From positions 1 through 14,262 of the IMG/VR virus record IMGVR_UViG_2695420747_000011: DNA of 14,262 nt, one strand, 5' to 3'. The stretch is from a virus (taxonomy: Duplodnaviria > Heunggongvirae > Uroviricota > Caudoviricetes). Below, piece by piece: positions 1,607-3,054 of this stretch. Position 1 is the stretch's first letter, and each line of letters opens with the position of its first letter. The notes under the pieces are model-generated. The model did not search any database, was not told the DNA's origin, and was given only the letters and a program-made list of their open reading frames with translations. A program made the position numbers and the translations under genes.

Positions 1607-1636
1607 CAGAAAAAACAAAACCCGCCGAAGCGGGTT
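1607..1636 (-). terminator. Rho-independent terminator downstream of hok
   Basis: On the minus strand: AACCCGC-TTCG-GCGGGTT followed by TTTGTTTTTT (plus-strand stem arms 1619-1625 and 1630-1636; A-run 1609-1620). Confidence 0.6.
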
Positions 1637-1704
1637 AAGTGCGGGTGCGTTGAGGATGCCTGACACATCAGCGGTGGCGAGGGATTTCTCCCCCGCCGGG
1701 TCTC

Positions 1705-1860
1705 TTACTCCTCAGGTTCGTAAGCTGTGAAGACAGCGACCTCCGTCTGGCCGGTTCGGATTCGTACCTCGCAGAGGTCTTTCCTCGTTACCAGTGCCGT
1801 CACCATGACGGTTAAACAGATGACGATCAGGGCGATTAGCATCGCCTTTTGCTGCTTCAT
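1705..1860 (-). CDS. hok: Hok/Gef-family type I toxin (51 aa, membrane-active)
   Basis: MKQQKAMLIALIVICLTVMVTALVTRKDLCEVRIRTGQTEVAVFTAYEPEE has the typical Hok/Gef/RelF N-terminal TM helix plus the conserved C...C periplasmic tail. It is near-identical to what I recall for HokD/RelF. SD AAGGAG lies about 9 nt upstream of ATG 1860. Confidence 0.85.
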   Translation of the reverse strand: MKQQKAMLIALIVICLTVMVTALVTRKDLCEVRIRTGQTEVAVFTAYEPEE

Positions 1861-1917
1861 AGCCTGCTTCTCCTTGCCTTTCGGCACGTAAGAGGCTAAC
1901 CTACGTGTGTAGAGCAT
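1705..1917 (-). CDS. mok: mok-like overlapping reading frame (in-frame N-terminal extension of hok, 70 codons)
   Basis: The track ORF MLYTRRLASYVPKGKEKQA-MKQQKAM... starts 57 nt upstream of the hok ATG in the same frame, as in mokC/hokC. By analogy it would couple hok translation. Confidence 0.55.
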   Translation of the reverse strand: MLYTRRLASYVPKGKEKQAMKQQKAMLIALIVICLTVMVTALVTRKDLCEVRIRTGQTEVAVFTAYEPEE

Positions 1918-2151
1918 AGATATGGCCTCAGATTAATGTTAAGCGTCTTGCCGGACGCGTAATGTTAACTGGGGCTTTTCTCTATCTGCCTTTTGGTGTT
2001 CATGCCTGAGACAGATAGCCTCAAGCACCCGCTGCAATTCTACTTAACTCTCCTTTTCCCGCAAACCGTTTTTATCCCCAGCGGCAAATCGAATACACCA
2101 CCAGCGCCACCGCCATCGCAATTCCTACCGTTGTTAATGCTTCAGGCCAGC

Positions 2152-3054
2152 TCATTGATTCACCTCCTGCGGCGGTTCTGGTAGCGGCATCCAGTGTGAC
2201 GGTTTCCACGACGCACCAGGAATTATCCACCCATCATTAGCGTCAGGATGCCCGGGGATGTAAGTAGCCCATTTCATTCGCCAGTCACCTTTCCTGTCAA
2301 ACTCCACGGCAACAAGAACGGCTGTTTTGGTATTCGGCATTCGCTCACTACAGCTTATCCAACCATCCGGAGTTGCCGGAGAGTTGCCCGATAGTGCATT
2401 CTGCTCCAGTGATGCTTTTACAAACCACGCTGCCTGAACTATAACGCCATGAATCCAGCGCAAATCAGCATCGCGATCTTTCTTTTTCATCTTTTCGCCA
2501 CTTAAGGCCTTGCTTATGTGGCTGCGTACCAGGTCTTCATGTAATTCCTTCGCCTCCTCAATGGTGAAACCACCAGGCAGAAGAGCCGGAGTTACCGGAG
2601 AGCTGGTTGACGCTTCCGGGATTTCCCGAAAATTATTGGTTGACGAATTCTTGCTTTCCCGAAAGTTTCCGGACTGAAGCATGGCGGTGCGGCAGGCGTT
2701 CCATATTTCGGCAGCAATATCGCGCTCGCTATCGGTTAATTTGTACGTGGAAACATAGCCAGAGAGCATTTCTACGTTTTCCGGAGTTGCTTCTTCCGGC
2801 ACTACCGGCGCTGGCGGGGCGATGCGTCCAAGCAACTTATTTACCTCTTTCGCCATCGCGTCATATTTATCTAAATGGCGATTAGCTTCTAAGCAGACTC
2901 GGCGCATCTGATCTGAGTTAACTCGTTTAACTGGATCTGCTTCCAGCGATGCCAGCGCAATCCGTGCCAGTTCCATTTGTTCACCACGGGTAAGCCCGTT
3001 TTCAAGCGGGTTTTTAATGAACAATTCAATACGTTCTTTGGTAATAGTGGTCAT
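2152..3054 (-). CDS. phage protein with C-terminal DUF551-like domain
   Basis: 300 codons. SD AAGGAG lies 6 nt upstream of ATG 3054. The C-terminus (...DGWISCSERMPNTKTAVLVAV...W...WMPLPEPP) matches my recollection of the DUF551 signature common in enterobacterial prophages. Confidence 0.55.
   Translation of the reverse strand: MTTITKERIELFIKNPLENGLTRGEQMELARIALASLEADPVKRVNSDQMRRVCLEANRHLDKYDAMAKEVNKLLGRIAPPAPVVPEEATPENVEMLSGYVSTYKLTDSERDIAAEIWNACRTAMLQSGNFRESKNSSTNNFREIPEASTSSPVTPALLPGGFTIEEAKELHEDLVRSHISKALSGEKMKKKDRDADLRWIHGVIVQAAWFVKASLEQNALSGNSPATPDGWISCSERMPNTKTAVLVAVEFDRKGDWRMKWATYIPGHPDANDGWIIPGASWKPSHWMPLPEPPQEVNQ

Follow-up and report, generated by a model that had tools for sequence, protein, structure and literature searches.

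The closest described relative of the locus analysed here is hokW/mokW/sokW of the Stx2 phages 933W and Sp5/VT2-Sakai (AF125520, Plunkett 1999 annotation). In Sp5, Takada et al. (2021) found that HokW is toxic but that the native locus is not, that mutation of the sokW -10 restores toxicity, that sokW supplied in trans rescues the cells and that the hokW and SokW RNAs are both detected on Northern blots (PMC8621323). Mitomycin C treatment brings about, in a RecA-dependent manner, the loss of SokW and the appearance of HokW in the inner membrane; deletion of hokW-sokW delays growth arrest by approximately 40 min and halves phage release, and has no effect on growth when the prophage is not induced (PMC8621323). 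The alternative states of the hok mRNA are best described for the plasmid R1 hok/sok (parB) system and are summarised in PMC9841398. Escherichia coli K-12 carries hokB/sokB, hokC/sokC (gef) and, in the Qin prophage, relB-relE-hokD (relF), the HokD of which is listed as one of the assay controls drawn from toxic Hok peptides that had been characterised before (bioRxiv 10.1101/2025.08.07.668861).

The window, which is the whole 14,262-nucleotide stretch analysed (IMG/VR virus record IMGVR_UViG_2695420747_000011), contains what is very probably a complete hok/mok/sok type I toxin-antitoxin cassette of the hokD/hokW allele group, situated in the nin-like region of a lambdoid prophage. This assignment is based on homology, open reading frames, predicted pairings and the conservation of those pairings, and like behaviour of the window copy is suggested by analogy with hokW-sokW. 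The kind of locus is already known, as cassettes of this sort are very common, with phage 933W providing an annotated example and Sp5 a characterised one. The features are listed in Table 1.

Table 1 Features of the hok/mok/sok cassette in the window (minus-strand features drawn with an arrow are given 5' to 3').
Feature	Position	Strand	Sequence or composition	Basis
sok promoter	1874-1902	+	-35 TTGCCT (1874-1879), 17-nt spacer, -10 TAACCT (1897-1902)	identical hexamers and spacing in 933W/Sp5 sokW
Sok antisense RNA	1909-1981	+	predicted 71-77 nt; 3' end between 1979 and 1985	homology with annotated sokC, sokB and sokW
Sok 5' tail	1909-1923	+	15 nt, single-stranded	fold
Sok terminator hairpin	1924-1976	+		fold
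Sok U tract	from 1977	+		fold
Hypervariable patch	1909-1925	both	Sok 5' recognition tail; on the opposite strand, mok SD-AUG spacer and mok codons 1-3	
Putative hok promoter	2037-2064	-	-35 TTGCGG (2064→2059), 16-nt spacer, -10 TAGAAT (2042→2037), predicted +1 G2030	sequence; activity predicted
Predicted full-length hok mRNA	1610-2030	-	approximately 420 nt	5' end from homology, 3' end from the terminator T run
tac (translational activator element)	2019-2030	-	GGGUGCUUGAGG, mRNA nt 1-12	minimum free energy (MFE) folds and conservation
ucb / anti-SD box	1969-1975	-	GCCCCAG, mRNA nt 56-62	paired with mok SD in the full-length MFE fold
mok Shine-Dalgarno (SD)	1926-1929	-	GAGG, 9 nt 5' of the mok ATG (nearest bases)	read from the sequence; sequestered by ucb in the predicted closed form
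mok ORF	1917→1705	-	70 aa (19 aa plus Hok); hok frame, common stop codon	ORF translation
hok Shine-Dalgarno (SD)	1870-1875	-	AAGGAG; complement shares two bases with the sok -35	read from the sequence
hok toxin ORF	1860→1705	-	51 aa, MKQQKAMLIALIVICLTVMVTALVTRKDLCEVRIRTGQTEVAVFTAYEPEE	ORF translation and Pfam PF01848 HOK_GEF
3' UTR stem-loop	1676-1697	-	GGCGGGGGA-GAAA-UCCCUCGCC	MFE fold; compensatory changes at three pairs among homologues
fbi (fold-back inhibitory element)	1643-1655	-	CCUCAACGCACCC	pairs with tac; conserved in K-12 hokD and 933W hokW
Intrinsic terminator	1610-1636	-	GC-rich 7-bp stem (1636→1619), then T run	terminator scan

The initial annotation of this DNA had recognised a hok homologue with a mok-type in-frame upstream reading frame and a terminator of its own, and all three are found. 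The 70-amino acid product matches HOK_GEF (PF01848) in a profile search with 81.4 bits (E 3.5e-23; cut-off 22), and the stem and T run of the terminator are the sole terminator-like site between positions 1500 and 2300. In a protein comparison, the window Hok is HokD with a single substitution, I19M. Hok is almost invariant among homologous loci and this variant is rare, being found in 1 of 102 unique loci; it is a conservative change inside a transmembrane helix. The 19-amino acid in-frame extension that distinguishes Mok from Hok is kept in 83 of the 102 loci, and coupling of hok translation to mok is predicted here from the characterised systems. In a RefSeq copy that is 100% identical, PGAP labels the hok coding sequence hokD and leaves the rest of the cassette unannotated. 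A similarity of the hok 3' UTR to IsrK was below threshold (27 bits versus 50) and this identity was not accepted.

Sok was placed by aligning the locus with R1-type plasmid hok/sok and K-12 hokC and hokB, and projecting the annotated sokC and sokB onto the window. Both project onto positions 1909-1985 of the plus strand, while the annotated 71-nt SokW of 933W maps onto 1909-1979 of the same strand with 65 of 71 nucleotides identical. The predicted first base, G1909, lies seven bases past the sok -10. The initial annotation had expected a Sok-type RNA on the plus strand at around 1870-1990, which agrees with the promoter and RNA as now placed by homology. The Sok sequence (1909-1981) folds with an energy of -29.4 kcal/mol (z -4.3), and none of 200 shuffled sequences was as stable. 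The GCGTC...GACGC hairpin that had been pointed out at 1943-1958 is present, and its arms (1943-1947 and 1954-1958) form the apex of the Sok terminator stem. This tip is part of an 18-nt insertion that SokC, SokB and R1 Sok do not have, and it is because of this insertion that SokW-type RNAs are longer.

The hexamer TTGCCT near 1874 had been described as weak and promoter-like. The position and the weakness both stand, since the promoter matches the consensus at only 7 of 12 positions and was not flagged in a generic promoter scan of the locus, but the hexamer is the true -35 of sok. In R1, the sok promoter (TTGCGC-17-TATCCT) likewise matches at only 7 of 12 positions. The exact TTGCCT-17-TAACCT arrangement is found in 75 of the 102 unique homologous loci, most of the others having TTGACC-18-TAATCT or TTGACC-18-TAACCT, and the copies from Kluyvera retain TAACCT and the hairpin with entirely different tails. 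In Sp5, the primers YO-421/422 change TAGGTTA to CCGGCTC on the hok strand, that is TAACCTA to GAGCCGG on the Sok strand (PMC8621323), so the mutated site is exactly the hexamer assigned here as the sok -10. As that mutation abolished protection, TTGCCT-17-TAACCT is functional in a near-identical locus. Transcription of Sok from the window copy, its instability and cleavage of the duplex by RNase III are predicted by analogy with relatives in which they have been demonstrated, namely R1 and, in part, hokW-sokW.

The homology to 933W and Sp5/VT2-Sakai amounts to 93% DNA identity over 94% of the window locus, extending from a point 5' of the hok promoter to shortly beyond fbi. The two loci have in common the sok -35, spacer and -10, and the Sok hairpin with its 18-nt tip insertion. 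In both, mok is in frame with hok and has the same 19-amino acid extension, and both lie in a lambdoid prophage, co-oriented with early transcription. HokW and the window Hok are identical at 45 of 51 residues and differ at the C-terminus, which reads TAYEPEE in the window (HokD type) and VDYESEK in HokW. All six differences between SokW and the window Sok fall in the first 17 nucleotides, and cross-recognition between the two is doubtful because 6 of these 17 differ. Further differences are that fbi is followed by a canonical terminator in the window but not in 933W, where the homology ends just after fbi, and that the window locus is in the nin region of the pR operon whereas hokW adjoins attR. 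Judged by these comparisons, the window locus is a member of the hokW-sokW allele group, yet a distinct allele that differs in both the Sok recognition sequence and the Hok protein.

On the opposite strand, the putative hok promoter region differs by one nucleotide from that of 933W hokW. In each of the four aligned loci, a -10-like hexamer precedes the conserved GG(G/C)(U)GC 5' end by 6 nt, namely TAGAAT (window), TATGAT (R1-type hok), TATAAT (hokC) and TAGGAT (hokB). The generic promoter scan flagged a different minus-strand sequence, TTAACA-18-TATGCT, inside the leader; this is taken as a chance match because the characterised loci have no counterpart. The Rfam family RF01794 matches over its full length (model positions 1-157 of 157) with 117 bits and E 1e-26, against a gathering score of 59. 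Despite its name, 'sok', the family was rejected as a model of Sok: the match is on the hok strand, runs from 2030 (model position 1) to 1855 and ends at the hok AUG, so that the model describes the hok leader and its coordinates were not used for Sok. The full-length match shows that the hok leader is intact.

The elements known to control R1 hok translation could be identified in this leader and in the 3' UTR. In the MFE fold of the 421-nt mRNA, tac and fbi form 12 base pairs with one bulge, and these pairs are retained in 98-101 of the 102 unique homologues. The pairs between ucb and the mok SD are retained in 97-101 of about 100 homologues, with GC replaced by CG at one pair in five sequences. 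Overall, 95-100% of the 102 loci have standard pairs at the tac/fbi, ucb/SD, target-hairpin and 3'-hairpin positions; double changes at conserved pairs are few (for example TA to CG, AT to GC and GC to AT). The first 30 nt of the mRNA fold by MFE as a 5' metastable hairpin that sequesters tac, and the MFE structure of the first 60 nt is the tac/ucb stem. When the whole 3'-truncated mRNA is folded, by contrast, tac stays in the metastable hairpin and the tac/ucb stem is not formed, so the open tac/ucb form is suggested only by the isolated 60-nt 5' fragment and by analogy with R1. The predicted closed, metastable and tac/ucb states match those summarised for R1 hok mRNA (PMC9841398), and on the same model the stem-loop between hok and fbi is likely to be the 3' protective hairpin of the processed, active mRNA.

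The order of elements is the same in R1 and in the window: promoter, tac, ucb, mok SD, mok, sok promoter overlapping the hok SD, hok, 3' hairpin and fbi, with the same predicted tac/fbi, ucb/SD and metastable pairings. The two Hok proteins share approximately 44% identity. The window Sok (71-77 nt) is longer than that of R1 (approximately 64 nt) owing to the 18-nt hairpin tip, an extra terminator is present 3' of fbi, and the R1 locus is carried on a plasmid rather than in a prophage. K-12 hokC/sokC and hokB/sokB have leader blocks homologous to that of the window, with their annotated Sok RNAs in the same alignment columns. SokC and SokB are shorter than the window Sok as they do not have the 18-nt tip, hokC is disrupted downstream by IS186, and the sok promoters are variants (TTGACC with an 18-nt spacer in hokC; TTGCCG-17-TAAGAT in hokB).

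The comparison with K-12 hokD is different in kind. The homology begins just 5' of the hok Shine-Dalgarno sequence AAGGAG, and from there the two loci are nearly identical through the coding sequence, 3' UTR, fbi and terminator; the proteins differ only at residue 19, and both prophages have dicB and DicF. To the 5' side of AGGAGAAGCAGGCTATG, K-12 hokD has no homology to the window, the leader being replaced by relE, which abuts the hok SD. The hok promoter, tac, ucb, mok start, Sok target and both sok promoter hexamers are therefore missing from K-12 hokD. On this alignment, K-12 relBE-hokD is a truncated form and the window locus the untruncated one. The relBE-hokD (relBEF) arrangement does not apply to the window, as the K-12 homology stops 5' of the hok SD, and the annotation of the 28.8 kb surrounding the identical RefSeq copy contains neither relB nor relE, in keeping with an earlier remark that, unlike in K-12 Qin, no relBE pair precedes hok. 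Pedersen and Gerdes are said to have described hokD as rearranged in 1999; a statement that K-12 hokD is rearranged was not found in open-access text.

A human E. coli isolate matches the 801 bases around the locus with 100% identity, and the genes around the identical RefSeq copy identify the host element as a lambdoid prophage integrated beside ompW. Isolate AF39 (NZ_OZ547136) is one example of a strain with this prophage. Its genes include int, xis, exonuclease, dicB, a cI-like repressor, cro, replication genes, DUF551, hok, DUF968, RusA, Q, lysis genes and terminase. Although dicB and DicF are common to both, the prophage is not Qin itself, given its integration next to ompW and its different immunity and replication region. 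From cro through Q every gene is on the hok strand, which places hok in the nin-like part of the pR early operon; Sok, on the plus strand, would be transcribed head-on against the operon.

The window leader (1861-2045, at least 80% coverage) was detected in 4212 of 5426 complete E. coli genomes (approximately 78%), mostly at 90-95% identity, and in every example inspected the intact leader was in the same prophage module of a lambdoid prophage. The K-12-type relE-hokD junction was found in 1173 of the 5426. By these counts the stand-alone form is the common form. In a 16-mer scan of genome contigs, most matches were dismissed as chance occurrences in unrelated MAGs, and the real matches were confined to Escherichia, Shigella, Kluyvera and a few contaminant contigs.

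Based on these comparisons, the following mechanism is proposed. Transcription of the hok mRNA would begin at approximately G2030 of the minus strand, driven by a promoter of its own, and the 5' end of the nascent transcript would fold into the metastable hairpin. The finished mRNA would be locked by pairing of tac (2030-2019) with fbi (1655-1643), with ucb (1975-1969) sequestering the mok SD. Slow trimming of the 3' end would remove fbi, allowing tac to pair with ucb, which would expose the mok start and permit hok to be translated by coupling to mok. Sok would be made constitutively on the plus strand from TTGCCT-17-TAACCT, beginning at G1909 with a 15-nt tail complementary to the mok start region and followed by the long hairpin. 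On binding the opened mRNA, it would block translation of mok and hok and mark the duplex for RNase III. If Sok synthesis were to stop, the pool of stable mRNA would yield Hok, leading to inner membrane damage. Toxicity of the window Hok and its neutralisation by Sok are predicted on the precedent of hokW-sokW.

Activation may be wired to prophage induction through head-on interference, as early transcription derepressed on induction may shut off sok, which faces the pR operon. The hokW gene of 933W, at the attR end, is encoded on the strand that also carries int and the pL operon; once the prophage has excised and circularised, transcription reading from pL through attP would enter hokW in the hok sense. 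Head-on transcription into the sok promoter in both arrangements would explain the RecA-dependent loss of SokW.

The same molecular mechanism could serve a different main role, namely defence by abortive infection or the killing of cells that lose the prophage, rather than help in lysis. R1 hok/sok partially excludes T4 according to cited literature, but hok is not enriched beside defence systems (bioRxiv 10.1101/2025.08.07.668861) and the sole direct experiment on this allele group points to lysis and phage release (PMC8621323); such a role is possible, though we regard it as the less credible one. The cassette could instead be structurally intact and physiologically silent, with Sok and hok mRNA both made and the toxin never released under natural conditions, as selfish or neutral prophage cargo. 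According to earlier work reviewed in bioRxiv 10.1101/2025.08.07.668861, the native chromosomal hokA, hokB and hokC neither mediate post-segregational killing nor become activated by rifampicin, and by analogy structural integrity would be no guarantee of activity; the normal growth of the uninduced hokW-sokW deletion strain (PMC8621323) also fits a silent cassette. Silence is nevertheless improbable, as every regulatory element is conserved across the 102 unique loci and into Kluyvera, the near invariance of hok argues for selection, and the 93%-identical Sp5 locus did produce HokW on induction, with the effects of its deletion on arrest and phage release described above. A lost or crippled antitoxin, with plus-strand hexamers too weak to act and hok either checked by mRNA folding alone or inactive through I19M, is the least credible reading by far: the consensus match of 7/12, the failure of the scan to flag the promoter and the rarity of I19M speak for it, but the -35, spacer and -10 are base for base those of the functional sokW, the R1 promoter is no closer to consensus, the Sok hairpin and U tract are intact and isoleucine-to-methionine in a transmembrane helix is conservative. 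The doubt raised in the initial annotation as to whether this copy retains antitoxin control is thus not sustained, since the copy has the same promoter, spacing and hairpin as sokW, an experimentally proven antitoxin; the alignment that the annotation had suggested shows the sok promoter and RNA to be intact. A complete cassette with a functional antitoxin, working as proposed, is the preferred reading.

Nucleotide diversity along the cassette is far from uniform. Among 91 unique hokD/W-type loci it is 0.32 in positions 1909-1925, or 0.39 when the mok ATG is left out; the corresponding values are 0.040 for hok third codon positions, 0.024 for the Sok hairpin and 0.04 for the sok promoter, and the tail is thus approximately 8 times as variable as hok third codon positions. 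The variability extends a few bases further, into mok codons 4-5, and Mok residues 2-5 vary accordingly. In 54 rows, 18 tail haplotypes were counted.

In R1, the Sok 5' tail is reportedly the part that first contacts the target, from the work of Franch et al. in 1999, and for this reason the pattern is the one expected of a diversification of antitoxin specificity. The variability may reflect such diversified specificity; alternatively, it could result from missing structural constraint. Tail differences between co-resident copies, seen in 3 of 3 multi-copy genomes, were rejected as evidence, as random pairs differ approximately 89% of the time. We put forward only tentatively, as a conjecture with the odds against it, the combined proposal that the Sok tail is under diversifying selection and the cassettes of lambdoid prophages are mutually orthogonal, together with the related idea that activation is wired to induction by head-on transcription. 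If this were true, co-resident or superinfecting prophages would be unable to neutralise each other's hok mRNA. The latest survey of Hok diversity explicitly left the Sok and Mok elements unanalysed.

The 'hokD' coding sequence called by PGAP in most E. coli prophages is part of a full hok/mok/sok cassette, the Sok RNA and mRNA elements of which are left without annotation; the textbook copy, K-12 relBE-hokD, is the exception, being truncated. For the biology of the window locus itself nothing new is added, and the hypervariability of the Sok tail is the sole point of follow-up interest; the many hok/sok copies found side by side in pathogenic E. coli might fall into specificity classes defined by it.

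Among hokD/hokW-type loci there is a hypervariable patch with sharp limits, which affects both strands and occupies the 5′ tail of Sok. Nucleotide diversity is 0.32 in the patch vs 0.04 at hok third codon positions, with 18 haplotypes among 54 rows, while the flanking promoter and hairpin show almost no variation, Kluyvera included.

Table. Features of the hok locus and of the surrounding prophage (window positions).
Feature	Position	Strand	Description or basis
hok 3′ UTR	1615-1696	-	protective hairpin, fbi and terminator; sub-threshold IsrK match
UACG motif in hok CDS	1719-1722	-	Tyr47 codon (UAC) followed by G; C-terminal Tyr codon
hok codon 19	1804-1806	-	ATG, Met
Hypervariable patch	1909-1925	both	Sok 5′ tail; opposite strand, mok SD-AUG spacer and first mok codons
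27-aa hydrophobic ORF	2072-2155	-	MSWPEALTTVGIAMAVALVVYSICRWG
300-aa ORF, uninterrupted	2152-3054	-	C-terminal DUF551 domain
DicF sRNA, full-length	9789-9840	+	Rfam RF00039, 76.7 bits, E 8e-16

The Hok protein encoded in the window has Met (ATG) at position 19, where K-12 HokD and HokW have Ile (ATA), and the exact protein was found in this sequence alone among the 102 unique homologous loci. The presence of a UACG motif at the Tyr47 codon suggests that editing may also be required for full toxicity of this hok. Near-identical E. coli-type hokD/sok sequences were also found on short contigs labelled Collinsella, Xanthomonas pisi, ‘Candidatus Scatousia’ and Haemophilus (a MAG); these are most likely E. 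coli prophage DNA contaminating the assemblies.

Comparison of phage 933W (AF125520.1, 58400-58460) with window 1610-1640 revealed that homology between the window cassette and hokW stops just past fbi, the element predicted to pair with tac in the hok mRNA. The canonical terminator hairpin is common to the window copy and K-12 hokD but is absent from 933W, where the cassette adjoins attR on the int/pL strand and does not lie in the nin region. Taken together, the end of homology and the missing terminator show that the cassette boundary varies from allele to allele. The hok 3′ UTR also resembles IsrK (RF01394), a family of sRNAs from Salmonella Gifsy-1; the match spans the full length of the model but, at 27 bits (E 2e-4 in a 201-nt search), is below the gathering score of 50. 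This resemblance could be due to chance; it might also point to an origin of IsrK in a 3′ UTR of hok type located in this same part of the prophage, upstream of Q.

Upstream of hok, the 27-aa ORF starts with an ATG that overlaps the stop codon of the preceding DUF551 gene (ATGA). It ends with a stop codon that precedes the putative hok −35 element by 7 nt. A Pfam search with this ORF gave no match. A short hypothetical CDS is annotated at a similar position in an O157 copy, and the homologous stretch lies within the hokW-sokW fragment that Takada et al. cloned using primer YO-432 (PMC8621323). The structure of the DUF551 ORF itself is at odds with the PGAP annotation of the 100%-identical RefSeq copy, in which the same stretch contains only a 62-aa DUF551 CDS and two pseudogene fragments.

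As annotated in the identical RefSeq copy, dicB is located approximately 175 nt downstream of DicF. The module is like that of Qin, while the prophage is integrated beside ompW instead of at the site that Qin occupies. With a full-length DicF followed by dicB, this prophage therefore has a Qin-like dicF-dicB cell-division inhibition module.
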